Origin: Naegleria gruberi
Taxonomy: Eukaryota
DNA length: 64,000 bases
Assembly (NCBI GenBank): GCA_000004985.1
Contig: GG738929.1
Direction: 5' to 3' (one strand)
The notes under the pieces are model-generated. The model did not search any database and was not told where the DNA came from. It saw only the letters and a program-made list of their open reading frames with translations. Made by a program: the position numbers and the translations under genes. Shown here one piece after another: positions 10,633-54,721 of the stretch; the first letter of the stretch is position 1, and each line of letters opens with the position of its first letter.

Positions 10633-12825
10633 TTATTTTTGGAAACGATCAATCTTTCTGTGATAGAATGGATCGTTCAATTGAATGTATGTTGAAAGGT
10701 ACAATAATCCAACAATAACGAAAAGTGAGACAATAAGGAAGGTCAAAACTGACATGCCGGTGTGAACTCTAGTAATATAAGCATAAATGCCTTGCTTGGT
10801 GGAAACAACAATATCCAAAATATTATCACCATTAATGTCAACAAGTTGAATTGGAGAAATAGAAGGATGAGGGAGTTCAATAATTTGTTGAACGTTACCA
10901 AACAAATCAACAATAGTAATTCTCTTTTCACCAACAGCAACAACGAATGAGTGAGTTTCAAACTTTCTGAGTGGGAAAGCAACAATTTCAGGGAAAAATG
11001 ATTCAGTTTCAGCACCAGATTCAACCAAAACTCTTTCTCTTCTGAAAGAGGATGGTGTCATGACTTGCCATTTAACTCTGAATTTTGGTTCACCATTAAC
11101 GCTATTCTTTCTATCAAAAGTAATTGCAGTAACCAAACCAGTTGATGTCAAATAAACTAAATCTCTAGCTCTGTGTTGTGGCTTTTGTTCAGCAGAATAA
11201 TGTTCAATAATAGCTGGTGTGACTACATCCATTTGCTCATCCTCGTATTCTTCATCATCATCAAAGCTTTGTCTCTCTTGTTGTTCATTTGACATTAAGA
11301 ATGGAATGGAGAATTGTTCAATGAAAGAAGATGGATGAAGTTTACAGACAGACTTTCTGAAAAGAGTATCATATGGATTTGGAGCTCCACTTTCAACTCT
11401 GGCCTTACAAACTTGAGCTTCAGCAGCATCAATCATACCATCAAAGTTAATATCTTGATAGTAGGTGTTTTCCTTCAATGGTGAAAATTGAGTTAAAGTT
11501 CTACCGGTATACAAGTGAATAACTTGAATACCCTTTGAAAGATGGGCAACCATAACGTTTGGAATCTTTTCAAACTTCTTCATCAATTCAATATTCTTCT
11601 TCAATTTTTCATTGGTATCCTTAGTCTTAGTTGTAACAGTTTGAATGGTACTCTTAACCTTTTCTCCAATATCACCATAATCTTGTTTTTCAGCTCTTTC
11701 TTGAATCTTTGAAACCTTAGCTTTCTTTGTTGGTTGGAAATTGTCCAAAATAACAGAGGTATCATATGGGTGACGATAAACATGAGGTAAATGATGCATA
11801 ATCTTCTTCTTATATTCTCTCCATATAACTTCACCAGAGTCACTTAAATGTTGTTGAGCATTCAATTTGAAAGAATGTTGTTCATAAAATTCATTATCAT
11901 CCCAACTCTTAGCATTAGATTGATGCTTCCAACGAAGTTGACCTGTAGCTCCATCAAGACAGAAATATGTGATTTGAGTAGCTGTTTCTTCAGTTCTCTT
12001 GGTGCTATCATTATCAAACATTTCTTGAGGTTTACGGAAACCAATAATAACCATTCCTTCATCATTTTCATGAACTCTCCAAGGATAAACAGCAACAAAA
12101 ACTTCAAATGGTTTGAAATCATTTCTCAAATCTTCCATTTCCACATCAGTAAGCTTCATTTCAGAAACAACATGTTGCAAAAGATCAGATTCCCATTGTA
12201 AATTCAAATCAGGATCAAGACATAAAACTTTCCAATTTGAAAGAACAGCAGCAATTCTCTTTGTTCCTCTTTGTCCTTTCTTTTTCTTTACTTTAATATG
12301 ACCATGTCCGAGACCAATAATCGAATGATGAACAGTTCCTTTGTTTTTGTCCTTTTCATTAACATCAAATGATTTCTATTATTTGTAAAAATAAATAATA
12401 TTAATATTAAATAAAATTGATCATCATCATTCCTAAAAAACATACTTCTTCAGTGATTGGATTAAACATGTCTTGATGAACCAAAAGAGAGGATGAAATA
12501 GTTTTTAAGGAAACTATAGAAATTCTACCATTATCATTACTCGTTATTAAATCCTTTGATCCATCTCCATCAATATCAGTGATAATAGGCTTTGGACTAA
12601 AACGATCAAACAAGTATCAAATTTGATGACGACGATTATATTTCGGAAGGCTTTAAAAAAAACTTACACTAAATCCACTTGTCCTGTTTTTAATAAAAGT
12701 GGTTGTTGATTTGTTGTTTGTGAGAAAAAGAAAGCCTTTTCAATGGTTACACTTCCCTCTTGGTTCAAAGCAACCACCAAGAGAAGGCAAACCAATGCGA
12801 ACATTGCAAAGTCACGTTTTCGCAT
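10633..12825 (-). CDS. FG-GAP repeat-containing single-pass membrane protein (ITFG1/linkin-like architecture), 3 exons: join(12825..12668, 12596..12446, 12375..10633)
   Basis: There is an N-terminal signal peptide MRKRDFAMFALVCLLLVVAL. FG-GAP/calcium-binding-like motifs TDIDGDGSKDLI and DINGDNILDIVVS are present. A C-terminal TM SVLTFLIVSLFVIVGLLYL is followed by a short tail. The introns are GTAAGT...TTTTAG (71 nt) and GTATGT...AATAG (70 nt). Phases were checked and are in frame. Confidence 0.6.
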
Positions 12826-13760: not shown

Positions 13761-16700
13761 TTATTGAGCTTCAACTTGACCGCCTAAACATTTAATCAAA
13801 TAATCAATCATTGAGAAACTACTCATTTCTTCTACTAGAAGATTTGAATTCAATTCCTTCAATCGATTTGTTGCTTGTTTCAAATGAATAACAGATTCAG
13901 AATATTTGCTTGAATCTTTCTTTCCGCTTTGGAGTGTTTCTTTTGCCCATTGAGAAAGAGGATACATTCCATCATCACTCTTATCATTCTCAGTAACATT
14001 AGAAAGGAAATTGTCAAATGATGTTTCTTCTACTTTACCATAGAGATTAGGATAATTTGTCTTTAAGTGATTTAGTAACTCTTCGTGAGTTGGTGGATTA
14101 GTATTGCAAATGTGAATAATTTCCAAATCAAATAATTTGAATCGAGTGGAATTGACAATGATTTTGCTTACAAAGTCAACATTCACCAAGTTTCTAACAA
14201 TTTCTAAATTTGGAGTACTGTTAGTTCTCTTAATTGATTTTAACATTCTTTCCAATAGAAAACCTTTTGGCATTTCACCTGTTTCATTTCCAATAATTAA
14301 ACCAGGTCTCACAATCAATATTGGTAATCCCAAAATGTCTTTGGCTTGTTTCAACAAACACTCGGATGCAAATTTCGTTTGAGGATATCCGAATGTGAGA
14401 TTCATTTCTGATAGTGTTGAAATCCTCTCTATTGGTTGACCTGAATCCTTATCCAAAGGTGCAGCAGATATTGAACTAACATATAGCAATGGCTTGACCC
14501 TACTCTGAAATGAAAACTCAATCATTCGTCTTGTTCCATCAACATTCGATTCTTTCAAAGATGAAAATGGTTGAATAAAATTCACAACAGAACCACCATG
14601 ATAGACAACATCAACATTCCGAGCCAATTCATCATAGGTTGCTCTGTCCATTCCAAATAAATCCAAGCCAACATCTCCAACAAGTACTTGAACTCTGCTA
14701 ATATATTCATTCTTCCAAAGTGAATACTTTTTCATGTTATCTATTAATCTCTTAGTTGCATGATCAATACTATTACCTCTACAAATACAATAGACCATTT
14801 TCAATTCTTGTAATTCTAATAAATCTCTTAATAGGAAGGCACCCAGAAATCCAGTAGATCCAGTTAAGAGAACTTGTTCATGAATGAGTGGTTGACTGGA
14901 AGAAATACTTTGTGGAAGGGATTCCTTTGATTTTTCCAAATATTTCATTATTTCTTCATTGACAACAGGTGTTAATAATTCAGATTGATTGATTGCCTCA
15001 ATGAGTTTCTTTGGAGTGTTCATCTTGTATACTTCATCAACACTCAGTTGAACATTGAATTCATTCTTGATATAATTTCTTAATTTGATCAATGAAATTG
15101 AATCTAATCCAATATTAGTAAGTGATGTATTCAGTTCAATTGCATTTTCCTCGTTTATAAATATTTGCTTATTCATAAATTCGAGAAATTGTGAAGGTTC
15201 TGCAATTTTAGAAGCTTTCTTACTTGATTGAGGTTTCTTTACCATAATATTTTCATTCTCATTAGCAGAGGATGAAACATTGTAAAGTGAATCAATAATA
15301 TTCTTGAATACTTGTTCAGTTTTAGATCTAGAAACAAGTCCTTTCAAACTACTGGTTGGAATACTATCATTGGTTAGCAATATAAAATCCACAATTCTAG
15401 AATGGAATGGAAGTCTATTATTCATTTCAATAATTTGCTCACTAATCTTTTCCTTAATATTATTAGGTTTCTTTTTAGGATCAATTTCAATCAATGCCAC
15501 ACAGAAAGGTCTATTATGACCAATGACAGCACTTCTAACAACGGATCCATCAAATGAATCAATTTCATTCTCAATTGGTACTGGATTAGTCATTTCACCA
15601 TTAGTATGACAAAGAATATTATCAGATCGGGTATTATAGAAATAGTGATCTTTAGGATACTCAAAAAATAAATCATGAGTACAGAATATACCATCTACCC
15701 AAAACTTTGTATTATTAATGGACATGTAATCCAATGCACATGTTGGGCAACCCTTCTTTAGATTCAATAAATAACACTTTTCCATTTCATAAGGTTGCCA
15801 AACAATGTACTTTTCTGGAATGACACATTTCATTGATTTGAATGCGCCAGTGAACGGATCAGCTGCCATTACAACACCTACCTCACTCATTCCATATCCA
15901 TTTGTTATGTTAATTCTATGATCTTGGCAATAATTGATGAGATGATTTGGAGTAGAAACTCCACCAAGAGCCACAACCAGACATTCAGATAATAGTTTAG
16001 TCTTTTCCTCTGATTCCATTATTTCTTCCAATAAAATTGGAAATACAATGGCTCTAGTGGATGGTAAATGTTCCTTATGGCTCAACAATACCTGACTGAG
16101 TGTTTGAGAAATACTTTGTCTAGTTGTCTGATTAAACATTATATAATTAGTACCCTTGTAGAGACAACCCAACAAGTTATATAATCCCATTAAGTGAAAT
16201 AATGGTAGAAAGTTGATAACATATTGTTGACTTGTCGTTCCAATGGATTGTGAATAGTGAAGACTTGACATTAGTGATCTCATATTGTGAATTACTATTT
16301 TAGGAATATTAGTACTACCTGAAGTGTTCAAATAAAAGCATGGATCTTCAAATTTGAATGGTAATTTCAGTGCTTGTTTCAAATCTTCATCACTGATTGT
16401 AGTATCTAATTGATCTTTGATAGCTGAAATAATGTCGAATGGTTTCAGATAGGAAGAATATTCATGTTTCTCATAATCTTTCAATTGTTGTGAAATGTCT
16501 GATGTGATCATGTATTTATCGGCTGTTTTAAAGAATGTATCCATACTCTCCTTATCACTTGCTTTAATCATTGAATCTAGAATCTGGGGAGATAAACTAA
16601 CATATTTCACATTTCCCAATTCGAGTAGTTTTGAAATAATTCCAGGAGTCAATTTGTTATTGACTGGAAAATTAATACAACCCAAAGTCCATAATGCAAA

Positions 16701-17021
16701 CAGTAATACAGAGTAGACTATTGAGTTTTCATGTAACAAAGCAACGCAAGAACCTTTCTTTAAACTTGGCCATTGCTTCATGATTAATCTTCTGGCCATT
16801 GCAACTGATTTGGAAAATTGACCAAATGTTAAGGTTGATATTTCCAATTTGTAATCTAATGGTAATTCACCATCTGTGATCACTCTTGTGAGGAAAGTTG
16901 ATTGAGAATTGTTCAAACCATAATGTTCTACAAGTTCCAATAAGTTAAAGAATGGTTTCCTATTTAAAGGCCATTCAACTTGAATTCCTTCGTGGTCTAT
17001 AATTTCTGTTGACTGACTCAT
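13761..17021 (-). CDS. NRPS-like carboxylic acid reductase / Lys2-type enzyme: adenylation domain, phosphopantetheine carrier domain, NAD(P)-dependent thioester reductase domain (A-T-R), single exon, 1086 aa
   Basis: The A-domain cores are NTSGSTNIPK (A3) and TNGYGMSEVG (A5). The carrier Ser motif is NIGLDSISLIKL. The reductase Rossmann motif LLTGSTGFLGAFLL is present, together with a downstream YxxxK (YPQTK). The ATG at 17021 is real. Confidence 0.85.
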   Translation of the reverse strand: MSQSTEIIDHEGIQVEWPLNRKPFFNLLELVEHYGLNNSQSTFLTRVITDGELPLDYKLEISTLTFGQFSKSVAMARRLIMKQWPSLKKGSCVALLHENSIVYSVLLFALWTLGCINFPVNNKLTPGIISKLLELGNVKYVSLSPQILDSMIKASDKESMDTFFKTADKYMITSDISQQLKDYEKHEYSSYLKPFDIISAIKDQLDTTISDEDLKQALKLPFKFEDPCFYLNTSGSTNIPKIVIHNMRSLMSSLHYSQSIGTTSQQYVINFLPLFHLMGLYNLLGCLYKGTNYIMFNQTTRQSISQTLSQVLLSHKEHLPSTRAIVFPILLEEIMESEEKTKLLSECLVVALGGVSTPNHLINYCQDHRINITNGYGMSEVGVVMAADPFTGAFKSMKCVIPEKYIVWQPYEMEKCYLLNLKKGCPTCALDYMSINNTKFWVDGIFCTHDLFFEYPKDHYFYNTRSDNILCHTNGEMTNPVPIENEIDSFDGSVVRSAVIGHNRPFCVALIEIDPKKKPNNIKEKISEQIIEMNNRLPFHSRIVDFILLTNDSIPTSSLKGLVSRSKTEQVFKNIIDSLYNVSSSANENENIMVKKPQSSKKASKIAEPSQFLEFMNKQIFINEENAIELNTSLTNIGLDSISLIKLRNYIKNEFNVQLSVDEVYKMNTPKKLIEAINQSELLTPVVNEEIMKYLEKSKESLPQSISSSQPLIHEQVLLTGSTGFLGAFLLRDLLELQELKMVYCICRGNSIDHATKRLIDNMKKYSLWKNEYISRVQVLVGDVGLDLFGMDRATYDELARNVDVVYHGGSVVNFIQPFSSLKESNVDGTRRMIEFSFQSRVKPLLYVSSISAAPLDKDSGQPIERISTLSEMNLTFGYPQTKFASECLLKQAKDILGLPILIVRPGLIIGNETGEMPKGFLLERMLKSIKRTNSTPNLEIVRNLVNVDFVSKIIVNSTRFKLFDLEIIHICNTNPPTHEELLNHLKTNYPNLYGKVEETSFDNFLSNVTENDKSDDGMYPLSQWAKETLQSGKKDSSKYSESVIHLKQATNRLKELNSNLLVEEMSSFSMIDYLIKCLGGQVEAQ

Positions 17022-22786: not shown

Positions 22787-24331
22787 CTAATAGTAACAAT
22801 CGTCAAAAATATCATCTCCATCAAGTTCCTCAACTTTCTCAATACCATTTGTGAATGTGAATGGTTTCTTGTTTGCTCCACTCTCATCATTTCTTGAAGA
22901 GTAGAAATAATCTTGGATATTAAAGAGTTTACGTTTGTGAGTCATAGCATATGAAGCCATAAATTTCACAATATTAATTGGATCATTTGTACCATTTCCT
23001 AATATTTTCCCAATCATTGATAGATATTCTGATTCAACATTATTGGTGGGCTCATCAAATCTACTCTTTTCAGAACAGTTTTGATAAATGTAAACTGAAT
23101 CTTTTGGATTATTGAAATAACATTCGAGTCCAACATCAACAAAATCATCATCTCCAGTATAGTTTTCACATTCATATTTCAAAGAAAAGAACTTGTACTT
23201 TTCTTGGAGACTTCCTCTGATCCTTATATCAAATTCAACTTTTTCATAACAGTTCTCCTCATTAAAAATTCGAACAACAGTCACAGGAGAACACCAAGTA
23301 ACATTTTTGAAAGCTGGTGATGGAGCTTGAAGAGTTTTAGCTATCCTTGTTGATGATAAATTGTTGGCAGAGAATCGCACAAACTTCAATATTGAATTAA
23401 TTGATTTTTTTGGGATTTTACACATCTTATCAATTAGATCTGAGGCAAATTGGATTCCTTTCTTGCTTGGAACATTTTCGCACCACCCAAACTTATCAAC
23501 CCTCTCTAGTATGTTACAGCCAGGTGCTTTTGTATATGCTTCAATCAATGATTGATAAATTGTATCCATATTCTTCTCTGGAAGCAGAGTTTTAATTAAT
23601 GCTTGTATATTTCCCCTAACACCGAAGGCAGTTGTTTTCAATACAGCATCTAACCCACATTTGTCAATATCTATTTCTTCCAAACTGGCTTTTTCATAAT
23701 GAATAAGAACTCTATTATTACATGAAATGACAAATGTTGAAAGTAAGTGATTAAAAGATCGAAAAGTAGCATAATCTATCTTGATCAATAAATACTGATT
23801 CGAATCTCTTACAAGGAGTTTCTTAATTGAGGAAGTGAATGAAGAATTTCCTGTTTTAACAACATTAAAGCAAAATAAGCTTCCTAAATTCTTGTCTATC
23901 ATTATATTTTCCTTAATTTCCTTGTCCAAAATTGCAATTTCAGCATTTAATCTATAACATATTCCAAGAAAGAAGTTTCTCGTATCTACCTCTGAAGTAA
24001 ATTCTCTACATGCTTCTTTCATTAACATTGCAATCTTTCTTGATTGATAATGATATAAAAAATTATCCCCATCCATAATATTCCTAATTGATGTACAAGT
24101 TGCATACAATGAACATTGTGTATCCAAAGAGGAAAAACTACAAATTTCGTCCAAAATTCCTAATTCCATCGGAAAACATTTTGTCATCATTGAATTATTA
24201 GCTGCTGCTGCGGATGACACTGCAGAGGAATTCAATAATGGAGTTGGTGATGATGATTCATTAGAGATCTTTGCAATTTTTTGCCCTTCATATCCAGAGT
24301 TAGATTCAGCCTCTGATGATGTTCTTTTCAT
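22787..24331 (-). CDS. F-box-like domain protein (hypothetical)
   Basis: The N-terminal motif CFPMELGILDEICSFSSLDTQCSLYATCTSIRNIM is F-box-like. The real ATG is at 24331 (MKRTSSE...); the track start at 24364 is a GTG. The rest is unrecognised. Confidence 0.5.
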   Translation of the reverse strand: MKRTSSEAESNSGYEGQKIAKISNESSSPTPLLNSSAVSSAAAANNSMMTKCFPMELGILDEICSFSSLDTQCSLYATCTSIRNIMDGDNFLYHYQSRKIAMLMKEACREFTSEVDTRNFFLGICYRLNAEIAILDKEIKENIMIDKNLGSLFCFNVVKTGNSSFTSSIKKLLVRDSNQYLLIKIDYATFRSFNHLLSTFVISCNNRVLIHYEKASLEEIDIDKCGLDAVLKTTAFGVRGNIQALIKTLLPEKNMDTIYQSLIEAYTKAPGCNILERVDKFGWCENVPSKKGIQFASDLIDKMCKIPKKSINSILKFVRFSANNLSSTRIAKTLQAPSPAFKNVTWCSPVTVVRIFNEENCYEKVEFDIRIRGSLQEKYKFFSLKYECENYTGDDDFVDVGLECYFNNPKDSVYIYQNCSEKSRFDEPTNNVESEYLSMIGKILGNGTNDPINIVKFMASYAMTHKRKLFNIQDYFYSSRNDESGANKKPFTFTNGIEKVEELDGDDIFDDCYY

Positions 24332-24533
24332 TTTTTTTTTATTGTTTATTTCCAGATAACACACAACATTCTCGACATTCTTTGATGTTCCAATTTCAAT
24401 TTGATTGTAAACAAGAGTAAAAAAATTGAAGATGAGTTGAAAATCTATTTGTGTTAATATAGATTGAAGTAAATAATGGTGATTTAAAAAACACTAATAT
24501 TAGAATGAATATTAAAAAACCAATTCAAAGAAA

Positions 24534-26507
24534 ATGTACTCACTGCACCAACACACTACTCAAGATGAATGTAATGATCATTCACATTCTGATACCTTCT
24601 TCGATGATAATAGTACTATTGAGTCATTGCTCAATGATGATTTGTTTTCACACCTTGCTGGCAATACTCAAGCACCATCAGAGAGTGGAGTTTCTAATTC
24701 TTGTCATGATTTTGAAGATGATAACGATGATAATGAACGAGTTGACAATGAAGAAGAAAGTATGCCACCTTGTAAACACCTAACACCAGATGCAAAGAAG
24801 GAGAAGGAGGAATTTGTTGCTAGAAAATTAACAGAAGAGGAAATTCCAATGGAAAGAACAATATTTTGCAGTAATTGTACTTCATGCACTTCATGTGTCT
24901 GTCAGAAGAATAAGCTTCCCTGTACAGTTAAATGTGCATGTCAAATTAAATGTAAAAATTTGAGAAAAGAAGTACTAACTGATAATTGGATTCAACACAA
25001 AACCTTACCAGAAAGAAATATTGAAAGTCCACTAATAGTTGGTCCAATTAATGTGAAACAAGATTTATCCATAAAGGAATCATTTCAATTGATTTGGACA
25101 CCTGATATTATAGAACACATTTATGAGAGAACCAATAGAAAGTTTGAATATTGGCAAATTTACTCAGATGAGATTAAAATGTATAAACTTGCAATTAAAG
25201 ACAAATCCAAAAAGAGAAAGAGAATGAACAATAACACTAATCCATCTGAATCCATTGAATTATGTTCAGATATCGAATATGATCAGCCAGTTAGAACTCC
25301 AAAAAAGATATTTCCTGATTTTGATGAATATTTCACAAAATGTAAAACTGAAAACAAAATATTAGAAGAAAAGTTTTCAAGAAAGCAAATTACTAACTTT
25401 TTAAATATTTCTATATTGATGAATACTACATGTAAAATTCCAAACATTTGCAATTATTGGACAATATCAGGACTTGATGCAGCCCTTTATGGAAATGGAA
25501 TATTCAGATATTTAATGAGTAGATCAATGTTTAATCAAATCAAGCAGAATTTAACATGTGACTCTGATTTTTTGGAAATGAGAGTGAATGAGAATTCTAG
25601 AAAATTTTGGAAATGTTTCAAAGAAATTTCAGTGGATGAAATAATTGCTCCTTTCAAGGGAAAGATTAGTGACAAACAGTTTCTCCCCACCAAACCTCAC
25701 AATTATGGATTGAAATATTATACACTATCTGATTGGGTTGGGTATGTTTATGCATTTTGGTTGTCAAAACACGAACATAAATCAGATAAAATTGTTTTAG
25801 ATCTTATTGAGCATATTGATGATCCACAGAATCATATTTTAGGTGTCGACAATTATTATGGATCATTAAATTTAGCAAATCAATTATCAGAAAAAGAATG
25901 GAATTATGTCATGACAGTGAGGGCTAATAGACCAACATTTCTTTTCAGTGATGGATTGTTGAAACATCTCAAAAGAAGCAAAACTAAAAAGTGGACTCAA
26001 GCTGTCCATAAAAACAATCACATGGCTGCTGTTTCTCTCAATGATCACAAAAAGGTTAATTTTTTAACTAATTTGGGAAGTAATCAAACATTTCATTCAC
26101 AACCACTTGTTCAGAAATATGAAAGAATGGGTTGTGTTGAATTGTCTGGAATCAATCTTTACAAAATGGATGTTCCCTTCGAGGTAAATAATTGGAAAAT
26201 CATCCATCTCTTTGAAGTTCTACGTATAGCTCTCGTTAATCAATATTTAATTTATAAGCATGTTAGAAACTTAACTAATTTGACCCTCAATGAATATTTG
26301 CAAGAGGCAACATTATCTCATTGTGAATCCACCAACCCAAATTTCAAAAGAACAATACATTTCCCATCCAGTGTCAAAACTCGTGGACTTTGTGAGCATT
26401 GTAAGAATTTTCATTCTCTCACTCCTATCAAATGTCCTGCTTGTAATTCCTACCTTCATCAAAAGTGTTTTGTAGATTTTCACCTTAAAAAACACATTTA
26501 TTATTAA
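24534..26507 (+). CDS. piggyBac-transposase-derived protein (DDE_Tnp_1_7) with an N-terminal CXC/tesmin-like Cys-rich region and a C-terminal Cys-rich zinc-finger tail; probably a domesticated or solo transposase gene
   Basis: The piggyBac catalytic-core signatures are present: SVDEIIAPFKGKISDKQFLPTKPHNYGLKYY and VDNYYGSLNLANQL...VMTVRANRP. The N-terminal segment CSNCTSCTSCVCQKNKLPCTVKCACQIKC is Cys-rich. The C-terminal segment CEHCKNFHSLTPIKCPACNSYLHQKC is also Cys-rich. I found no TTAA-flanked CCCTAGAAAG-type terminal inverted repeats in the flanks. Confidence 0.7.
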   Translation: MYSLHQHTTQDECNDHSHSDTFFDDNSTIESLLNDDLFSHLAGNTQAPSESGVSNSCHDFEDDNDDNERVDNEEESMPPCKHLTPDAKKEKEEFVARKLTEEEIPMERTIFCSNCTSCTSCVCQKNKLPCTVKCACQIKCKNLRKEVLTDNWIQHKTLPERNIESPLIVGPINVKQDLSIKESFQLIWTPDIIEHIYERTNRKFEYWQIYSDEIKMYKLAIKDKSKKRKRMNNNTNPSESIELCSDIEYDQPVRTPKKIFPDFDEYFTKCKTENKILEEKFSRKQITNFLNISILMNTTCKIPNICNYWTISGLDAALYGNGIFRYLMSRSMFNQIKQNLTCDSDFLEMRVNENSRKFWKCFKEISVDEIIAPFKGKISDKQFLPTKPHNYGLKYYTLSDWVGYVYAFWLSKHEHKSDKIVLDLIEHIDDPQNHILGVDNYYGSLNLANQLSEKEWNYVMTVRANRPTFLFSDGLLKHLKRSKTKKWTQAVHKNNHMAAVSLNDHKKVNFLTNLGSNQTFHSQPLVQKYERMGCVELSGINLYKMDVPFEVNNWKIIHLFEVLRIALVNQYLIYKHVRNLTNLTLNEYLQEATLSHCESTNPNFKRTIHFPSSVKTRGLCEHCKNFHSLTPIKCPACNSYLHQKCFVDFHLKKHIYY

Positions 26508-26725
26508 ACAATTAAATCAAAGATATTTAGATTTCAATAAAGTATTGAATCTTAATACTTTTTGCCATCAAAACCTTCAGTTTAAGCGACTAGAAAATAG
26601 GGGGAACCTTTGCCAATTTTTCAATACCAAACAAAGGGATAAAAACAGTTTAATAAGTATTAAGTTATTTAATAAAATACTTTTAAGCAATCAAGATCTT
26701 GTTTTCAATCTATGACTAAGAAAAA

Positions 26726-26843
26726 GACTACAGCACCACAGGTTCCCAAGTTGTCTCCAACCTCAGTACTGATGTGGCTCGACGATGCTTAACTTCTCAA
26801 ATCGGACGGGATGAGGTGCATGAATCGTGATATGGCCGTAGCC
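26726..26843 (-). rRNA. 5S ribosomal RNA gene (copy 1), 118 nt, followed by a T-run Pol III terminator
   Basis: The reverse complement reads GGCTACGGCCATATCACGATTCATGCACCTCATCCCGTCCGATTTGAGAAGTTAAGCATCGTCGAGCCACATCAGTACTGAGGTTGGAGACAACTTGGGAACCTGTGGTGCTGTAGTC followed by TTTTTC. The universal 5S blocks are present: CTACGGCCATA, CATCCCGTCCGAT, GAAGTTAAGCA, AGTACT, GGAGAC, TGGGAA and GGTGCTGTAG. The two ends pair to form helix I. Confidence 0.8.
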
Positions 26844-26899
26844 ATTTCCTATCATTAAATCTTAATTTTGAATAAGAATATTACTGATTTTTAAATCTA

Positions 26900-29958: not shown

Positions 29959-30051
29959 ACCCAGTGTCAGGACTTGAACCTGAATTATGTGATTTGGACT
30001 TGTTGTTTAAGTATCGTCAGATTCACATGTCTTTCATTAGACTACACAGGG
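29959..30051 (-). tRNA. tRNA-like element, best fit tRNA-Gln(CUG) with a 23-nt intron after position 37; possible pseudogene
   Basis: A manual fold gives the acceptor CCCTGTG/CACTGGG (6 of 7), U8, and D-stem GTCT/AGAC. The anticodon stem is TGTGA/TCACA with loop ATCTGA|intron|A. The T-arm TCAGG-TTCAAGT-CCTGA is perfect. The D-loop is short and lacks GG, which is why I suspect a pseudogene. Confidence 0.3.
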
Positions 30052-37542: not shown

Positions 37543-37726
37543 TTTTTAATCGACGAAAGGTCAACATGAATATCGAGAATCAAAAGGCCACAAAAAGAAA
37601 TGTCCTTCTAAAAGGTTCTCGGGAGAAATCATCAACACCTTTCGATAAATTGGGATTACAGCTTTTATGGAGCATCAAATCAGAAGCAATCAAGATCTTG
37701 TTTTCAATCTATGACACTAAGAAAAA

Positions 37727-37844
37727 GACTACAGCACCACAGGTTCCCAAGTTGTCTCCAACCTCAGTACTGATGTGGCTCGACGATGCTTAACTTCTCA
37801 AATCGGACGGGATGAGGTGCATGAATCGTGATATGGCCGTAGCC
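37727..37844 (-). rRNA. 5S ribosomal RNA gene (copy 2), identical 118-nt body to copy 1 (not compared base by base), with a T-run terminator
   Basis: It has the same sequence blocks as copy 1. The conserved 3-prime flank (about 40 nt) differs only by a 2-nt insertion, and the 5-prime flank is unrelated. Confidence 0.8.
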
Positions 37845-38162
37845 ATTCGTACTTCCAACTTGTGTAATATAAACCGATTTGATTCTCCTGGGGTGAGGTA
37901 AATAATTCAATAATTTTCATTCTTAGTATAAAAACAACCATCAATTTCAAAATACTTAATCGCAAGGAAATGTTAGTAATGTTATTTGACATTCTGAGCT
38001 CCAGTTTCTCCAACAAGTAACAAGGATATTTGTCATCAAATAAGTTACCTGTTTAAAACTCCCATCTATGTTATCGGTTGTAATTGTTTACAATAATTAA
38101 AAACTTACAAATTGCTCGCTTAATAATCAAATTAAAACCTCAAAAAAAAACACTCAAAAACA

Positions 38163-44673: not shown

Positions 44674-44723
44674 NNNNNNNNNNNNNNNNNNNNNNNNNNN
44701 NNNNNNNNNNNNNNNNNNNNNNN
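44674..44723. other. Assembly gap (50 N)
   Basis: Run of n characters. Confidence 1.
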
Positions 44724-44972: not shown

Positions 44973-46552
44973 ATGAAGATCTCAAAACTTGTTAAGAATA
45001 CCAAGAATTTAATCTCAACAAATAATAGATGCTTCTCTACTTGTGTTAATAACAAGGGAAGCGTTATTGGATCTCCTGCTGAAATTCCTCTTTCTAGCTT
45101 CTACCCAGGAGCTCCTCATCTTCCAAAGGATATTGATGCTAAAGAAGAATCACTTGTTTTCCAAACACAAACATCAACTCTTCCAAACGGTTTGAACGTT
45201 GTTTCAACTGTAAGTAATAATAATAATAACAAGAAGAGAAGACTTATTCCGCGGTAATAACGATTTTTATTGGAAATTATGATGTCAATGACGACGATGT
45301 ATTTAATGATGAAAATTTAAAAAATTAATTTTAATAGGATTCTACTTCAAGAGGAGTTAGTGTTGTCAGTCTTTTTGTCAATGCTGGATCCCGTTTTGAA
45401 ACATATCGTACAAGCGGTGTTTCTCACTTTGTTGAAAAGTTCTTCTTCTCAAGCACAAACAATAGAAGTTTGTTGAGATTGACAAGCGAATTACAAAAGA
45501 CTGGTGCTAGTGTTAGCGCTCAAACTGGTCGTGAACATATTGTATATCAAGCTGAAGCTTTGCGTGAATCAGTTCCTCTTGTTGTGGAACTTATGGCAAA
45601 CTCTGTTTTGCAAGGTAGATTGCATCCATGGGATTTGGAACCAAAGGCTGAAGCTGTTAAACGTGATATTTCTGAATTCCAAAACAATGCTCAATTCGTT
45701 TTGAATGAAGCTCTCCATCATACTGCTTTCAATGGTGAAACTCTTGGTCGTTCACTCTTGTGTCCACCACACAATGTCTCAAAGATTGATACTGATATTG
45801 TTTTGTCTTACATGAACAATTTATATGTTGCTCCACGTATGACTTTGGTTGGTACTAACATTTCACACGAAGAACTCAAAGAATTAGCTAATGTTTTGTT
45901 CTCATCAATTCCATCACAAGTTTCTGAAAGACCAGAAGGTGAACATTTCACTTTTGAAAAGTCCGAATATGTTGGAGGTGACTTGCAAATTCACGAACAT
46001 TCTCATGCTGGTACTCAAGCTATTTTGGCTTATAAGGGACCATCTCTCACTTGTTCTAAACATGTAGCATATCTTGTTTTGTCTGAACTTTTGGGACAAA
46101 CTACCAACAAGTATACTGGATCTGTTAATCACAGTGCTTCCAGATTGGCCAAGTCTGTTAAGAATGTTGAATTTGGATCTTCATTTGTTTCATCATACTC
46201 TGATAATGGTTTGTTCGGAGTCTTCCTTGCTGGTAAGAATGCTAAGGAAGTTTCCTCAGCTGTTCAATCCACAGTTGCTGAATTGAGCTCTGTTCAATCT
46301 ACTTTGACTGCTAAAGCTCTTGAAGGTGCTAAGAATCACGCTTTGCTCAAGCTCTACAACTCTGTTTCATCAAGTGTTGGTTTGCACGAACACACTGCTA
46401 CTTATGGTGGTGTCCAACAAGTAGCTCAAGCTATTTCTTCTGTCAGTGCTGCTGATGTTATTGAAGTTGCTAAGACTTTGTTGCAATCTAAGCCAACTTT
46501 GGTTTCTTATGGTGATCTTAACGGAATGATCAAGACTAGAAACATTCAATAA
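44973..46552 (+). CDS. Mitochondrial M16-family non-catalytic subunit (cytochrome bc1 core protein 2 / MPP-alpha-like), 2 exons: join(44973..45209, 45338..46552)
   Basis: There is a mitochondrial presequence. The degenerate zinc motif is HFVEK rather than HxxEH. The C-terminal segment SYSDNGLFGVFLAG matches core-2 SYSDSGLFG. The 128-nt intron is GTAAGT...TTAATAG. A 50-N gap lies just upstream at 44674..44723. Confidence 0.75.
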
Positions 46553-46652
46553 TTCTTTTTTGTTATAGAAAAACCGGTGAAAAAAAGTCAAAAGGGAGGG
46601 TCCTTTTATAATACCCTTATATAAATTAAAAAAAATCAATTTCTAAAATAGT

Positions 46653-49600
46653 TTATTTAATTTCTAATATTCCAAGTTTGAGTTCAATATCTTGTCTTGA
46701 TAAAATACGTGCTTGATGAATAACAGTATATCTATTATTGGATGAAATTGGAATTCCTTGTGAGAGCATGATATCAGTAACTTCAATAACCTTATCAGTT
46801 GCATGTAAAATTGTCAATTCCAAATACTTGTTCATTAAATCTTCAATTGAAAAGATATCTTCATATTGTAATGAATCTTGATTTTCAAATAATGATTCAT
46901 CACTCATTAATTGTTGAAATAATAAACTAGTTTCAAAATAATCTGAAAAATCTCTACAATTATGAGTTAACAAGTATAATGTTAATAAATCTCTTCTTGT
47001 TTCTCTATTTCTCAAATTATAAAAACACCACAATGCAGTAATAAATTGTCTTCTATGACATGTCATTAAAATTCCATTCAAAGTTCCAACATTATCAAGT
47101 GGAATTAGAGATTTTTCAATTAATTGTTTAATTCTATTTTGAGATTTTCCTTTCAAAATAATTAAAGTAATATAATAATAAATTTCATCATTCTTTTCAA
47201 TATTATTTTCCTTATTTGTAATTATATTTAAAATATTATTAACATGATAAGTATCATCATTTGGTAAAGTTATCATTTCTAAACCTTTCAAATAACAAGT
47301 TGTAATTAAAGTTAGAAATTTTTGAACATTTTCATCAACTTTTGAATTTTTCCAATTTAAAACAGAATTAAAAATAGATTTTTGTAATTCTGGATTTTTT
47401 CTTAAATGAATATTTTGTAATTCATTAAATAAATTTAAAACAATATCCAAAGATGGAATTAAATTATAAACTTGATAAATTTCTTTAAATATAGAAACTG
47501 CTTTTGTAAAATAATTTTTATGTTGTAAATAAGATTTAATAATTAATCTAAAAGTTTCCAAATTTGGTTTTACCATATTTTGTTTTAATTGTAAATAAAA
47601 AAATTCAATTTTTTCTAAATTTTTTTCCTTTTCATAAATTTCAATTAAAATATTATAAGCATTAACATTTTTAGGATATAATCTAATTATATTATTACAA
47701 ATTTCAATTGTTTTTTCTATATTTATATTTAAATAATATTGTGCCATTAAATCATAAGTTTCTATATTTGGAAAACTTTCTAAAAATGAAGTCATTTCTT
47801 CAATTAGTAATTTAAATGATTTTGAATTATTTTGATTTAATAAATATAAAAGTAATAAATTACAAATTTCAGTATTTAAAATTATTGAATCATTATAATT
47901 TTCAATAAATTTTTTAATTTCATCTTGTTTTTCAAAAATTAATTGTCCTTTTAAGTAAATTCTTTTTGTATTTGTATTATTTTCTAAATTTGGTAATTTA
48001 ATTAAAACATCTTGATAAAATGAAAATATTTTGTTTACATGTTTTAAATATTTTGATTCATTTAAGTGACTAGTTTCCATTTCTATAATTGTTTCAAATA
48101 TTAAATTAAATAAATTTGTTAAAAATTCAATTTTTTCATTTGTAAAATTTTTTAAATTATTAATTAAAAAATTAAAAATATTTGCTGCTATAAATGGTTT
48201 ATCTAATTTGGTACATAAAATTTCAATTACATTTTTAATAATTTCCTTTTCATTATTTAATTTTTCCAATTCAATAAAATTTAAATTTAAAATTAAATTT
48301 TCAATTAAATTATTTTCATTATTTTCATTTAAATATTTTAATTTAAATTCATTTGCAAATTCCAAATCTTTTTGTGTTGAAGAATTTTGAATTAATTTTT
48401 CATAAATTAAATTTAAAGTTTCATTTTCAATTTTTAAATTTAATTTTTTTAAATTTCCAAAAATTTCTAATGCAACATCTAAATTATTTATATTTTTAAT
48501 TAATTGATTTAAAATTTTACTTTTTTGTTCATTAGTTAAATTTGTTTGATTTTTAAAATTTCTATAAATAAATGATAAATTATTTCCAAATATAGTTGAT
48601 ATATTATTAATTAATCTATTTAAATATTCATTATCATATTCATTAATATTATTTAAATAATTATTAATACAATAATTAAAATAATTTAAAATTAATTGAT
48701 TACTATTTCCATCTTTTAATATATTTGCTTTATATGGTAATATTTCTATTCTTAATTTTGTACAAATTTCAAATAAATTTAATGATGACATGTCATTTGC
48801 CATAAATTTTAAAGCTAATTTAAATGAAATTGTAAAATTTGATTTAATTTTAGAAAATAATTTTCTAATCATTTCAATATTTCCATTTTTATCATAAAAA
48901 GTTAATAATAAAGAAAATTCTTCATCATTTAAATTATCTAAATTTGGTAAAATAAATTCATCAATTAAATTTTCATTTCCATTAAATTCAATTAATTTAA
49001 TTAAAAAAGATTTAAAATTTTTATAATTTTTAAAATTTAAAATTAATTCATTTAAATTTTTAGAATTTAAAATAAATAATTCTTTTGTTTTTTCATTAAT
49101 TAAATTATTATTTGTATTTATAAATTTAAATAATTCATCAACATTTAAATTTTTTTTAATCATATTTTCAATTACTAAATTAATTAAATCAATTTCAAAA
49201 TTATTTTTCTTTTTTAAAAATTTTGAATTTAATAATTCAATTGCTTCATTAATTCCATCATATTTAATTAAAGTTTCAATTGATTTTTTATAAATTTCAT
49301 TTTTTTTATCAATATTTCCAATATTATCAATTATTCTATTTATGGAATTTAATATACTTTTATTATAATCAATTAAATTTATATTATTTTCATTTTTATT
49401 CATTATTAATATTGTATTAAATAATTTTAAATAAATTTCACTTGTTTTATTTGGAATATTATTAAAATATAATAATCCATTTTGTAATGATTCCTTTTTT
49501 AGTATATTTTCTAATTCAATTTCATATGAAAATGTATTTTCATCTTTTTCAATATATTTTAATATTATATTTTGAATATTTTCATAAATTTCATTATAAT

Positions 49601-50153
49601 TTATATTTTCTAATTTATTAATAGGAGTATTAATAGTATTTATTGTATTATTTGAATTAATTGTTATATTTGAATTTATATTTAAATTATTATTGATATT
49701 ATTAGTATTACTGTTATTGAAAGTTGTTGAATAATTTCTAATAGAAAATAATCTTGTTGTTGTTGTTGTTGATAATACTTCGGAAGATGATGTTGATTTA
49801 AAACTAGTTAAAGATTTCTTGTTCAATTGATTATTTAAACAATCATTATGATAATATTGTTGTTGTTGATAATGATGAATTAAACGAACAATAAGATTAC
49901 TAGTAGTATTGTTGTTGTGATACACACGATGATGATTTAATAATTTAGCCTTTTGCATCATTTTTTTCAATTTTTCAAAAAAACATGAAGCATAATTAAA
50001 ATCAAGCCTTGACAAGTAAATGTGCATAATAATACTACTATCAAAAACAGAGTATATTAGTCTTAACATATCATCAACAAATACTTGGAAGAAAAAGTCA
50101 ATTTGATTGAAGCCTTTATCAAAGGCTAAAAATTCATTAAAAAAAATGAACAT
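46653..50153 (-). CDS. Very AT-rich helical-repeat protein, probably PPR/TPR-like (organellar RNA-binding type), about 1100 aa
   Basis: It is a long ORF dominated by N/I/K/L, with recurring 35-aa-like helical units (for example YNILIEIYEKEKNLEKIEFFYLQLKQNMVKPNLETFRLIIKSYL). The start is uncertain: the ATG at 50153 would overlap the NSUN gene start head-to-head, and an internal MM at 49961 is an alternative. Confidence 0.45.
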   Translation of the reverse strand: MFIFFNEFLAFDKGFNQIDFFFQVFVDDMLRLIYSVFDSSIIMHIYLSRLDFNYASCFFEKLKKMMQKAKLLNHHRVYHNNNTTSNLIVRLIHHYQQQQYYHNDCLNNQLNKKSLTSFKSTSSSEVLSTTTTTRLFSIRNYSTTFNNSNTNNINNNLNINSNITINSNNTINTINTPINKLENINYNEIYENIQNIILKYIEKDENTFSYEIELENILKKESLQNGLLYFNNIPNKTSEIYLKLFNTILIMNKNENNINLIDYNKSILNSINRIIDNIGNIDKKNEIYKKSIETLIKYDGINEAIELLNSKFLKKKNNFEIDLINLVIENMIKKNLNVDELFKFINTNNNLINEKTKELFILNSKNLNELILNFKNYKNFKSFLIKLIEFNGNENLIDEFILPNLDNLNDEEFSLLLTFYDKNGNIEMIRKLFSKIKSNFTISFKLALKFMANDMSSLNLFEICTKLRIEILPYKANILKDGNSNQLILNYFNYCINNYLNNINEYDNEYLNRLINNISTIFGNNLSFIYRNFKNQTNLTNEQKSKILNQLIKNINNLDVALEIFGNLKKLNLKIENETLNLIYEKLIQNSSTQKDLEFANEFKLKYLNENNENNLIENLILNLNFIELEKLNNEKEIIKNVIEILCTKLDKPFIAANIFNFLINNLKNFTNEKIEFLTNLFNLIFETIIEMETSHLNESKYLKHVNKIFSFYQDVLIKLPNLENNTNTKRIYLKGQLIFEKQDEIKKFIENYNDSIILNTEICNLLLLYLLNQNNSKSFKLLIEEMTSFLESFPNIETYDLMAQYYLNINIEKTIEICNNIIRLYPKNVNAYNILIEIYEKEKNLEKIEFFYLQLKQNMVKPNLETFRLIIKSYLQHKNYFTKAVSIFKEIYQVYNLIPSLDIVLNLFNELQNIHLRKNPELQKSIFNSVLNWKNSKVDENVQKFLTLITTCYLKGLEMITLPNDDTYHVNNILNIITNKENNIEKNDEIYYYITLIILKGKSQNRIKQLIEKSLIPLDNVGTLNGILMTCHRRQFITALWCFYNLRNRETRRDLLTLYLLTHNCRDFSDYFETSLLFQQLMSDESLFENQDSLQYEDIFSIEDLMNKYLELTILHATDKVIEVTDIMLSQGIPISSNNRYTVIHQARILSRQDIELKLGILEIK

Positions 50154-52022
50154 TTCAACCTTGAAGGCTTTTTCTGTTCGGAGATTAAATCATCACCATC
50201 ATCAATTCTATAATATTATCAATCCATATTCATATCATCAACAACAACAACAACAATTATTTTCAACATGTTTATTTACATTCAATAAGGATAATTTAAA
50301 TGAAAAGATTTTTAAAAATTCTAAAAAGCCTTCTTTCCAACAATCAAAACAAAGACATCATTCTAATAATACAAAACATTCTAATAATAATTCTAATAAT
50401 AATAACAAATCATCATCATATCATATAATAATAAAAAGAATGAAAAATATCCAAAAGAAGAAATTCTTGCAAAATTAGAACAAATTAAACAATTTGAAGA
50501 AAATCTTCAACAAGAATCAACATTAAATAATTTTCCATTTGTAGAAAGACATACTATATCAATATTATATCATTATCATCAAATATTAATTCAACAATCA
50601 AATTATCCATTAGATTTATTTATTTCAAATTATTTAAAAAAAAATAATATTGGAAAAAATAACAAACATTTAATTATTTCTTCATGTTATGAAATTGAAA
50701 AATTATATTTATTATTAGATTATTTAATTAAAAATTATGATTTTAAATTAATTGAATCTAAATTATTAATTTCATTAGATCAATATATAAATAGAATTAA
50801 TCAAATTAAAATTAAACAATTAGGTCCAAATTCAAATTTATTACCAAAATCAGTAACTTTTGTTGAAGAAAATAAGAAAACTGTTTTACATTGGAGATTA
50901 ATTTATTTTATTTATATTGATAGATTTTATACTAAAAATTTTATTAATTCTATAAATGATTTATATTCTCAATTTGGTAATATTCCTAAAAATATATTAA
51001 CTAGTTGTCCTTCTCAATTATTTGATTTATTTAAAGAAGATTATAATTTACAATATGCTATTGAATTATCTCAAATTAATTTAACTGAAGCTCCTGTTTT
51101 TGCTCGTTTAAATGATTTGAAATTTAATTCTCTTTCTAATAATAGTAATATTATTTCTAATAATAATAATAGTAGTAATAATACCAGTAGTAATAATAGT
51201 GAAAATAATGATAATTCTAATTCTTCTAATATTTCTAATAACAATTCAAATGAAAAGATAATATTAAAAAAGTTTATTAATAGATTATCAAATAATTATT
51301 CTGAAATTGTTGGACAAATATTACCAAGTGAAAATTCTAAATTTGGATTTAAATTTGAAAAAAAAGCAGAATTTAGACAATGGAAAGAATATAAAGAAGG
51401 ATTATTTGATATTCAAGATGAATCATCTCAATTAATAGTTCAAGAATTAATTAGAAATATTGTAATGAAAGAAATTAAAACATTAAAACCATTAATTTTA
51501 GATTATTGTTGTGGAACTGGTGGTAAAACATTTGCATTTGCAGGTTGTTTAAATGGAAAGGGACAAATTTATATGCATGATGTACGTTCTGAAAAATTAT
51601 TTCCCGAATTAAAAAGAAGAGCACAAAGATTAGGAATTGAAAATATTCAACCCATTGAACATGATCATTCACATTGGGATAAATTGAAAGATAAAATGAA
51701 TTTAGTATTGTGTGATGTTCCATGTACAGGAACAGGTACTTTGAGAAGAAATGTTGAAACCAAGTACAAGATTAATTATCAATGGTTACAAGAATTAACT
51801 GAAAAACAACGTGATATTATTCAAAAAGCAATTCCATTCGTTAAACAAGATGGTTATTTCCTCTATTCTACATGTTCAATTTTGAAAAAGGAAAATGAAA
51901 AACAATTGGAATGGATTTTGAAAAAGTACAAGAATTTCCAACTCGTTCACACTGTAAAGATTTTACCAACCATTGATGGTTCAGATGGAATGTATGGTGT
52001 TTTATTAAAGAGAATAAATTAA
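50146..52022 (+). CDS. NOL1/NOP2/Sun-family RNA (cytosine-5)-methyltransferase (short NSUN4-like form), with a frame discontinuity near 50400..50480
   Basis: Motif I is LDYCCGTGGKT, motif IV is CDVPCTGTGTLRRN, and motif VI is LYSTCSI. A long open frame runs from about 50406 to 52022. The track lists only its C-terminal 301 codons, from the first ATG at 51117. A separate ORF (ATG 50146, MNISTLKAFSVRRLNHHHH, presequence-like) ends at 50478 in another frame. Confidence 0.55.
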
Positions 52023-52123
52023 TTTATTGATATATTATTAAATGATAACTTGACTTGTTACTTTCAAGTTATTCTTCTAAATATGAAATTCTATGATAAA
52101 TAAAATGAATGAGATGAATGAAA

Positions 52124-54570
52124 TTAATTAGTTCTAACTAATTGTACAGTTGTATCAGTTGTCATCCAAATATTCAATTCTTCAAAATGATTTAAACATC
52201 TTGTAATATCTTCTTGTCTAAAACCAACTAATTCAGATTGTAAACCAGCCATATCAATAATACCATTTGTAGATTGTTGTAATCTATTTCTAATAATATC
52301 ATAAACACCATACATTGGATCAGATCTTCTTTGACTTCTATCACTATCATCTAAAAGTGAAGATCTTGATTCTAAAATTAATCTTTCTGCTTCATTAACA
52401 TCACTAATTTCAATTTTAGATGAAAATCTTAATCTTGCTTTTGATTCAGCAAGTCTATAAATTGATAAAATAGTTCTAGGTGTTGTATACATTTGAATCT
52501 TATCACTCACTTTAGAATTACGTTCATCATTTTGACGCATTGTAATATAAATTTCCTTAATCTTATTAGAGGCTGTATTGGCTCCAAATCCTTCTTGTGC
52601 TGATAAATAAGGTTCAAATGTTTTAGCTCTAGTTACAACTGCTCTAATATATTCAGGTGAAAATAATTTATTCTTCTTCATCTTCTTCATTTGAATTACC
52701 AGTAGTAGTAGTATTATTTGAATTGTTAGTATTTGAATTATTAGATGGTATTTGTGAAAATTGATGTACAAAAGTAATATGTCTTGCTAAATTCATATCC
52801 AATTCATTATTTTGTTTATCCAAAAGTAAAAACATCAAATCAAAACGTGACATTAGAGCAGGTGGTAAATTAATATTTTCAGAAACAGATCTTCTAGTAT
52901 TCCAACGACCATATGCAGGATTAGCAGCAGCTAATACACATGTACGTGCATTTAAAGTAGTTGTAATACCTGCTTTAGCAATTGAAACAGATTGTTGTTC
53001 CATAACTTCATGTAGTGCAGTTCTATCATATTCTTCCATTTTATCAAATTCATCAATACAACAAATACCATTATCTGCTAATACTAATGCACCTCCTTCT
53101 AGAATTAATTCATTTGTAAGTGGATCTTTAATAACAGCTGCAGTTAAACCAACTCCACTTGATCCTTTACCAGTTGTATAAATACCACGTGGTGATATAT
53201 GTGAAATGAAACGTAATAATTGAGATTTTGCAACACCTGGATCACCCATTAAAATTACATTTAAATCTCCTCTAATTTTTAATCCTCTAGTTTCACGTGT
53301 TTGTGCTCCAATTAACATTAATAAAAGTGCTTTTTTAACATTGGCATGTCCATATATTTCAGGTGCTATTGATTTTGATAATTTATCATACCATTGATCA
53401 TGTCCCATCTTTCTAATATCTGAATCAATTTTAATCATTAGTGCTTGTTCTTGTTCACTCAATTCACTTAAATCTGTATATCTTCTCTTATGTTTTAAAA
53501 TTGAATGTGCTTCTAAATAGGTTGTTGCAACAGGTCCTCCTCCTGAATGATGATGATTATTTCTACCACCACCACTATTACCACTACTCACTTGATAAGG
53601 TAAAAATATACCAAAACAAGTAATTGAATCACCAGGTGTACATGTTCTAGTTAATTCACCTCTCATAACAACTCTCATAGTTCTAGGTATATGTCCAGTT
53701 GGTACTTCATCTGACATTTCCTGAATAACTAATTGTTGAAATTTAACAAAACATGATTCTCTTGTTTGTTGTAATAAATTTCCTTTACATTCTTTTTGTA
53801 CACATGTTTCAATTGGAATGAATGATGTTTGATTAATTGTTTGATAAATCATTCCAGAACATGTATCACATTTATAAGTTGCTACTTTCATTTCTGCTTT
53901 AACATCTGTTTGTTTTGTTACAATACCTCTAACTGTTACTAATTTACCAATATGTTTTCCTTTAATTAATCTTAATGGTATTGTACGTTGTTGATGTGTT
54001 TTAGGTTGAAATGTTAATTCATATTTTCTATTCAATTCACTTGGTATTCCATTATTAGAACTATTGGAATTATTATTATTATTGGAATGTTCATGATGAT
54101 CATGATGATTATCATTCATTCATTAAATCATCAAATTCATCATTTTCTAATTGAATTAATTGATCAATAACATTTTCAAATAATTTTTTATATCTCATTC
54201 CATTTTCTTGTATTTTAAACATTAAATCTTTAAAACCTCCAATTTGTAAATCATCAAATTGAATGGGAAATTTAATCTTTTCATCAGAATATTCTAATTG
54301 ATGTAATTTTAATTGATCTATTAACTTTTTATATGGAAAAATCATTTCACTCTCCTGTAATAATTCATTAAATTGTACTGATGTAAATTCTAATAGGAAT
54401 TTTTTAATGGTTTCCTTTTCTCGGATATAATCTGGCATGTGAATTGATGATTTTGTAGTGTTATTATTGTCAAGAGTATTATTATTACTTCCTCCTCTAT
54501 TGTTATTGTTGGAGGCATTACCACCACTACCACCTCTCTGTTGTTGTTGTTGTTGTGAGAGTGATAACAT
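52124..54570 (-). CDS. mcm7: MCM7 replicative helicase subunit, recovered as three ORFs with two frame discontinuities (near 54112..54119 and near 52668..52771)
   Basis: The N-terminus MPDYIREKETIKKFLLEF is present. The zinc-finger/OB segment is KCDTCSGMIYQ. Walker A GDPGVAKSQLL, Walker B CCIDEFDKM and the arginine finger SRFDLMF are present. The C-terminal winged-helix-like tail matches the MCM7 order and length. Confidence 0.8.
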
Positions 54571-54615
54571 TTTTTTTTTAAAAATGTTTTTTCAACTTCA
54601 ACGTTTTGATTTGTT

Positions 54616-54628
54616 TTTTGGCGGGAAA
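54616..54628. promoter_or_regulatory. Consensus E2F site TTTGGCGGGAAA about 45 bp upstream of the MCM7 start
   Basis: There is an exact TTTSGCGC core in an otherwise AT-rich promoter. MCM genes are canonical E2F targets. Confidence 0.5.
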
Positions 54629-54721
54629 TTGAACCATCACATCATTAACAAGACCACAGTTTAAAAAAGATGAAAACGTTTTAAAAATAAATTTATATTT
54701 TTATTATTATTATTATTATAA

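Follow-up and report, generated by a model that had tools for sequence, protein, structure and literature searches.

The window analysed here is a 64,000-nucleotide (nt) stretch of the Naegleria gruberi contig GG738929.1 (assembly GCA_000004985.1), and the subject is an open reading frame (ORF) within it, at positions 24534–26507 on the plus strand. This ORF encodes a piggyBac-type transposase of 657 amino acids (aa), contains no internal stop and no introns, and occurs once in the window. A degenerate transposon end and a 5S rRNA gene lie to its right. Exact look-ups with three start forms gave no match to the product in the N. gruberi protein set, which indicates that the ORF is unannotated in this species, and no assembly on record holds a gene call for the exact product. 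Both of the genes to its left, in contrast, are annotated, as they match N. gruberi proteins exactly, namely the DUF4116 protein XP_002669291.1 and XP_002669292.1.

The catalytic core

The original prediction held that the catalytic core of this protein is piggyBac-like, and this was borne out. The Pfam profile DDE_Tnp_1_7 (PF13843), which has a cut-off of 22.4 bits, matches aa 279–569 with a score of 116.9 bits (E=1.6e-33), placing the RNase H-like catalytic core at 25368..26240 on the plus strand, and the structure of the Trichoplusia ni (T. ni) piggyBac transposase (6x67) aligns weakly with the ORF protein (phmmer E=0.0011). A profile search over 1.84 billion representative sequences returned 10240 relatives of the window transposase at E<=0.001. 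The DDE_Tnp_1_7 core is shared with T. ni piggyBac (PDB 6X67/6X68), as is an acidic, poorly conserved N-terminus. In other respects the two proteins differ: their sequence similarity is very low, and the window protein has an extra module of nine cysteines at aa 112–140 as well as a Lys-rich insertion at approximately aa 206–285. Only three of 40 family-invariant columns are broken in the window protein, the rest of which is well preserved.

Whether the three catalytic aspartates (DDD) are preserved had been left by the original prediction to an alignment, which showed that the triad is not complete. The first aspartate, D368 (codon 25635..25637, +; T. ni D268), is retained and is Asp in 152 of 154 relatives. 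The second, D439 (codon 25848..25850, +; T. ni D346), is likewise retained in the alignment to T. ni and the relatives. At the third position, corresponding to T. ni D447, the window copy has a GAA codon (26139..26141, +), which specifies Glu (E536) and not Asp. This column is Asp in all 123 of the relatives that cover it, so that Glu occurs in the window copy alone; the second N. gruberi copy described below (P0027, XP_002667986.1) also has Asp here. When the equivalent D447E substitution was made in T. ni piggyBac, excision was 4.4e-5 compared with 1.4e-2 for the wild type, and 2.4e-4 compared with 3.2e-3 in another assay, and its authors concluded that Asp is specifically required at this position (PMC2533014). 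The window copy is probably catalytically impaired. The third catalytic residue is one point of difference from T. ni piggyBac, and the equivalent of T. ni D450 is another. In an alignment of 124 relatives the D450 column is Asp in 99 and Asn in 15, and it is Gly throughout the Naegleria clade, even in the intact-ended copy of N. lovaniensis.

Cysteine-rich regions on either side of the core

In the original prediction, the string of cysteines CSNCTSCTSCVCQKNKLPCTVKCACQIKC in the protein's N-terminal part was likened to a CXC/tesmin-type DNA-binding module, and was regarded as an addition to canonical piggyBac which could retarget the protein. The string corresponds to aa 112–140 of the window protein (24867..24953, +) and has the form C-x2-C-x2-C-x2-C-x-C-x6-C-x3-C-x-C-x3-C, with cysteines at positions 112, 115, 118, 121, 123, 130, 134, 136 and 140. 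All nine are invariant in the three Naegleria proteins (window, N. lovaniensis and N. fowleri), and seven are invariant among the eight family members that were aligned. The nine-Cys array was found in at least 13 fetched relatives, some of them full-length and originating in metagenomes or unidentified sequencing runs (carriers include P0020, P0022, P0023, P0025, P0031, P0033, P0061, P0074, P0078 and P0123), and a variant nine-Cys array is present in the dictyostelid Cavenderia fasciculata.

The resemblance to the CXC/tesmin type is real, but membership of the corresponding Pfam family is not reached. As in the CXC and Zn3Cys9 modules (the CXC of tesmin/TSO1/LIN54, the CXC of MSL2 and the SUV39-type pre-SET domain), nine conserved cysteines are contained within approximately 30 residues. 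In its second half, C-x-C-x6-C-x3-C-x-C-x2-3-C, the array is spaced like the tesmin CXC motif, whereas the first half, spaced C-x2-3-C-x2-C-x2-C-x-C, is unlike it, and there is no match above the Pfam cut-off. The TCR profile (PF03638) did not match the window segment or two Naegleria homologues, even at E<=10; it matched three of eight relatives at 12.7–17 bits, below the cut-off of 23.5 bits, and one relative gave a sub-threshold match to MSL2-CXC (PF16682) at 14.6 bits. A profile of the Cys module found nothing significant in the PDB, the best match being the SUVH4 pre-SET domain (E=1.7). AlphaFold2 models of the module, made with three and then eight sequences, had predicted local distance difference test (pLDDT) values of 50 and 60, which is too poor for comparison, and Foldseek found no match to them in the PDB. 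The array is CXC-like and probably a zinc-cluster DNA-binding module.

The interpretation of the array as a fusion, and hence as a sign of domestication, does not hold. In N. lovaniensis, N. fowleri and Acrasis kona, the same array is encoded by TTAA-flanked elements with CCYTT ends; as elements with intact ends carry it, it belongs natively to a piggyBac subfamily and does not mark domestication. This differs from the host-derived fusions of the human piggyBac-derived genes, in which a SCAN domain has been joined to PGBD1 and a CSB portion to PGBD3; the Cys module of the window protein is ancestral to the transposon subfamily. Members of this subfamily come from Naegleria, Acrasis and a dictyostelid, together with many environmental sequences, and several have intact TTAA/CCYTT ends. 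The N-terminus of piggyBac is usually portrayed as unconserved and disordered (PMC5381638), and we found no description of a nine-Cys module on piggyBac in the searchable literature.

The second cysteine-rich region lies at the C-terminus, between H609 and H650 (26358..26483, +). The residues H609, C620, C623, C634, C637, C645 and H650 are invariant in an alignment of six relatives. The profile PF13842 does not itself match the window protein, for which only sub-threshold matches of C1_1, PHD and RING-like type were obtained; the relative P0004 does carry PF13842. A C-terminal cysteine-rich domain is canonical in piggyBac, and in the T. ni protein it is the transposon ends that this domain binds (PMC5381638, PMC5861402). 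Since the region in the window protein aligns ligand for ligand with this canonical domain, it is not the added part that the original prediction took it to be, and it has its counterpart in the cross-brace zinc finger of T. ni piggyBac.

Related elements and the ends of the window copy

The nearest protein to the window transposase is P0001 from N. lovaniensis, which has 663 aa, is 45% identical and carries the same nine-Cys array. It belongs to an element of 2749 bp, present as one intact copy, with the structure TTAA-CCTTTACGCCTAACGAAAAAT ... ATTTTTCGATAGGCGGAAGGG-TTAA and therefore with CC...GG ends of piggyBac type. The ends form an inverted repeat of 30 nt that is 90% complementary (L001 9746-9775 / 12483-12512). 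This repeat runs 5 nt past the TTAA (TTTCC / GGAAA), which indicates that the element inserted into a perfect 14-bp palindrome, TTTCCTTAAGGAAA. A published RepeatMasker annotation of N. lovaniensis reported 29 PiggyBac fragments (PMC6125883).

In N. fowleri there are three copies on three contigs (P0002; P0019; P0021 with P0168), whose DNA is 96–98% identical. The loci of the three copies are L004 5839-8634, L003 5150-7909 and L002 9876-11423. The complete copy, at L004, is 2796 bp long, has TTAA on both sides and ends in CCCTTCAGC...GGCGGAAGGG (CCCTTC...GAAGGG). The L002 copy is 3'-truncated and stops after approximately aa 425, and stops or frameshifts are present in all three. The L004 copy has Tyr at the third catalytic position (GCVYKSG). 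The differences between the N. fowleri copies comprise 16 indels and 47 substitutions, a high ratio which may partly reflect assembly errors. In another heterolobosean, Acrasis kona, the one copy (P0023) is flanked by TTAACCTTCTGACAAC and GTCGGCAGAAGGTTAA. Overall, the elements of the relatives are 2.7–4 kb long, with ends of the form 5'-CCYTT...AARGG-3' and TTAA duplications. The TTAA duplications, and ends that start with CC, are features which the Naegleria and Acrasis elements share with T. ni piggyBac; the window copy is unlike T. ni piggyBac in that intact ends are not present.

A second N. gruberi copy, XP_002667986.1, came from the profile search over 1.84 billion representatives; it consists of 126 aa on a contig of 1190 bp, and 111 of the 126 residues (88%) are identical to the C-terminus of the window protein. 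N. gruberi therefore has at least two copies of the piggyBac family. The original prediction had proposed that several near-identical genomic copies would point to an active transposon; a further copy does exist, but at 88% identity it is not near-identical. Under a strict rule, three of the 15 differences between the two proteins can be assigned to the window copy and one to its counterpart, 11 remaining ambiguous, and with so few polarised differences we draw no inference of relaxed or positive selection.

The genes around the N. lovaniensis, N. fowleri and A. kona copies differ from one another and from those in the window. In tblastn searches of the 10-kb flanks around the homologues in N. 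lovaniensis and N. fowleri, no window ORF of 80 aa or longer gave a match, except for a 20%-identical DUF4116 paralogue. Synteny was considered as support for domestication and was rejected, as this weak paralogue match was all that the comparison of flanks provided. Scans of metagenomes gave no close relatives with flanks.

We then compared the surroundings of the window ORF with these defined ends. The original prediction had reported neither piggyBac-type inverted termini nor a TTAA duplication within 150 bp of either side. It was correct in that the T. ni-type terminus CCCTAGAAAG was not found at the window copy, and no TTAA-C...G-TTAA inverted-repeat pair exists within 3 kb on either side, where the best pair matches at 6 of 16 positions. 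The N. lovaniensis end motif TTAACCYTTMCGCC... likewise had no relevant match in the window. What had been overlooked is a degenerate right end of the family type. The segment 26558–26621 is homologous to the right sub-terminal region of the elements in N. lovaniensis and N. fowleri (local alignment with their final 100 bp, P ~0.013 for each against shuffles; MAFFT), and belongs to a degenerate sub-terminal and terminal region at 26558..26642 (+), which finishes in AAAGGG (26633-26638) followed by ATAA (26639-26642) in place of TTAA. The right-end motif is 131 bp past the stop codon, and hence within the 150-bp flank.

On the left, a candidate terminus CCCTTCA lies at 24284..24290 (+), flanked by TTTG, with weak support. 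In N. fowleri the left end opens with the same 7 nt, and the distance from the candidate to the ATG is 250 nt, compared with 246 nt in N. lovaniensis. The candidate falls within the annotated 5' end of XP_002669292.1, the annotated start of which is at 24331, and in local alignments its similarity to the left ends of the relatives is no better than that of shuffled sequences (P 0.4–0.8). The motifs themselves are rare in the window (CCCTT 0.33/kb, AAGGG 0.24/kb), and this rarity, combined with the right place and orientation, makes them suggestive of ends, though short of proof. Complementarity between the CCCTTCA and AAAGGG remnants is poor beyond 5 nt. With TTTG on one side and ATAA on the other, there is no TTAA duplication at the family-type ends. 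These degenerate ends, together with E536 at the position of the third catalytic Asp, are why the window copy is probably immobile.

A further inverted repeat, likewise overlooked in the original prediction, encloses both the ORF and the 5S rRNA gene. Its left arm, GAT-TTAA-AAAACACTAATATT, is at 24481..24501 (full arm GATTTAAAAAACACTAATATT), and its right arm, AATATTACTGATTT-TTAA-ATC, is at 26877..26897, beyond the 5S rRNA gene. The arms are 21 nt long, match at 19 of 21 positions and both contain TTAA. This match exceeds all 300 Markov shuffles and all 266 slid real-sequence controls, and was reached by 4 of 3000 AT-rich real controls; the two arms are the only good matches to the repeat motif in 64 kb. 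One arm ends 32 nt before the piggyBac ATG and the other 33 nt before the 5' end of the 5S rRNA. The 5S gene itself is at 26725..26843 on the minus strand (Rfam RF00001, 100.3 bits). With a right end at 26638, the element does not include this gene; only with the atypical repeat as its ends would it do so.

Could these arms be the true ends of an element that is still mobile, TTAA-AAAACACTAATATT...AATATTACTGATTT-TTAA (24488-26890), with the 5S gene as a passenger? The closeness of the match relative to the shuffled and slid controls, the intact TTAA on both sides and the restriction of the motif to the two arms would all be in keeping with this, and clean flanks would suit the open reading frame. 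Nevertheless, we consider such an element improbable. Its ends would read 5'-AA...TT-3', whereas all relatives with defined ends have CCYTT...AARGG, and piggyBac ends have no feature more conserved than their terminal C/G (PMC5381638). The right sub-terminal block that is homologous to the relatives would sit approximately 270 bp inside the element instead of approximately 25 bp, and the left arm would be just 32 nt ahead of the ATG. E536 should also strongly lower catalysis. The repeat runs 3 nt past the TTAA, which is not expected of insertion ends, and the near-equal distances of the arms upstream of two convergent genes suggest a shared upstream motif or chance. The original prediction had supposed that TTAA-flanked terminal repeats further out would speak against domestication; the atypical AA...TT repeat is all that was found there, and it does not cleanly do so.

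The atypical repeat may be a shared upstream motif (GATTTAAAAAWCASTAATATT), Kolobok-type ends or a product of chance. Kolobok transposons duplicate TTAA, have 5'-RR...YY-3' ends and have been reported in Naegleria (PMC9587614), and the repeat would fit this end rule. In contrast, the window protein is clearly of piggyBac type, and neither a Kolobok transposase nor further copies of the repeat ends were seen in the window. The idea that the 5S gene is a passenger throughout the family was rejected, as Rfam found no 5S gene at the N. lovaniensis or N. fowleri loci. A second 5S rRNA gene, also at 100.3 bits, is present at 37726-37844 (-) and lacks the upstream repeat motif. Both genes are in 164-bp units which are 98.8% identical (26685-26846 and 37684-37847) and have unrelated flanks, and so these are dispersed 5S genes and no tandem array.

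Elsewhere in the window, a gene resembling nonribosomal peptide synthetases (NRPS-like) at 13761-17021 (-) encodes AMP-binding, carrier and reductase domains and is 100% identical to an N. gruberi predicted protein. Identity to the orthologue in N. fowleri is only 44%, and the closest relatives outside Naegleria are fungal NRPS-like proteins with 22–25% identity. Rfam identified a tRNA of 93 nt at 29959-30051 (-; 43.2 bits), which may contain an intron; ARAGORN found no tRNA in the window. Runs of N at 44674-44723 and 58256-63023 are scaffold gaps, and beside the larger one (46000-58000) the G+C content is 14–25% and the DNA is repeat-like, cross-matching simple repeats at the N. lovaniensis locus.

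A decaying transposon or a host gene

With moderate confidence, we favour the view that the window ORF is an immobilised, decaying or recently inactivated copy of a piggyBac-family transposon. Comparison with the relatives puts the ORF in a transposon family and takes away the chief argument of the original prediction for domestication. The family is a piggyBac-like DNA transposon of Naegleria and other Heterolobosea, with a transposase in which an acidic N-terminus, a nine-Cys CXC-like module, a DDD RNase H-like core and a C-terminal cysteine-rich finger form the native layout. The anatomy shown in the relatives fits insertion into TTAA, and the chemistry would be that of cut-and-paste transposition. 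The Cys module most likely binds zinc and adds a further DNA-binding surface to the transposase, with the transposon ends or the target as its partner. The window copy keeps its open frame and is probably immobile, having E536 at the third catalytic position, ATAA at its right end and TTTG at a doubtful left end.

Several observations weigh against this view. An intact ORF of 1971 nt in a genome of 32% G+C content is not what would be expected of an old, dead copy. In a neutral simulation, the fraction of runs without a stop fell from 36% (1% divergence) to 13.5% (2%) and 5% (3%), and the N. fowleri copies, which are only 2–4% apart, are already broken. The rapid gain of stops under neutrality and the broken state of the N. 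fowleri copies mean that either the window copy is young, with its ends lost by rearrangement and a few mutations, or its frame is under selection. A young copy should keep clean TTAA flanks and good terminal repeats, and the family-type ends in the window do not show these; the left end, moreover, amounts to 7 nt and a spacing. Found together, as they are here, an open frame, missing ends and an altered catalytic residue are also the textbook hallmark of a domesticated transposase.

An alternative is domestication. On this account, which we regard as a less likely and tentative one, the ORF would be a gene of the N. gruberi lineage, kept for a function that does not need the full transposase chemistry, such as binding to specific DNA sequences by means of its Cys module and C-terminal finger, while the ends and the TTAA duplication decayed. 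The account draws on the intactness of all 657 codons beside degenerate family-type ends and non-TTAA flanks, on a Glu that is unique in a column invariant in 123 relatives, on the breakage of no more than 3 of 40 family-invariant columns and on the speed with which neutral decay is predicted to introduce stop codons. The arrangement is also compact and host-like, with 203 bp separating the ORF from a divergent neighbour gene. Like human PGBD1-5 and the ciliate PiggyMac/Tpb2, the window copy is an ORF that derives from a transposase and lacks ends recognisable as functional; in addition, one of its catalytic residues has changed, which is also the case for some PGBDs.

The comparison also exposes a difference, however, as PGBD1-5 and PiggyMac/Tpb2 are conserved orthologues at fixed loci under purifying selection. 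Neither N. lovaniensis nor N. fowleri has an orthologue at a shared locus; their homologues are end-bearing transposon copies at unrelated loci. The existence of a second, diverged N. gruberi copy also tells against it, and the absence of the ORF from the N. gruberi gene set, with no exact gene call on record, is weak evidence against expression. The Cys module, in which a hint of retargeting had been seen, is an ancestral trait of the transposon subfamily, and the open frame could also stem from an insertion of fairly recent date and one subsequent D-to-E change. Of the two outcomes that the original prediction put forward, a decayed element stays live, while domestication has lost ground for want of the comparative signature.

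A narrower form of domestication, which we hold to be unlikely, is a recent capture as an N. gruberi host gene. The protein, with a D-D-E site and two zinc modules, would then have come under selection after the ends had decayed, as a sequence-specific DNA-binding or weakly nicking factor. If this were true, Heterolobosea would have their first described case of piggyBac domestication, and the near-symmetrical motif common to the ORF and the adjacent 5S gene might point to co-regulation of the two.

As regards the window, what has been learned is mostly corrective, in that the supposed domestication features prove to be ancestral to the transposon subfamily. The wider meaning lies with the family. 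piggyBac is a major tool of genome engineering, and here a conserved nine-Cys module precedes the core throughout a coherent subfamily. If this module binds DNA, it would be a natural case of a piggyBac transposase with an added domain for targeting or for recognising the ends, and the intact N. lovaniensis element would be a candidate active element.

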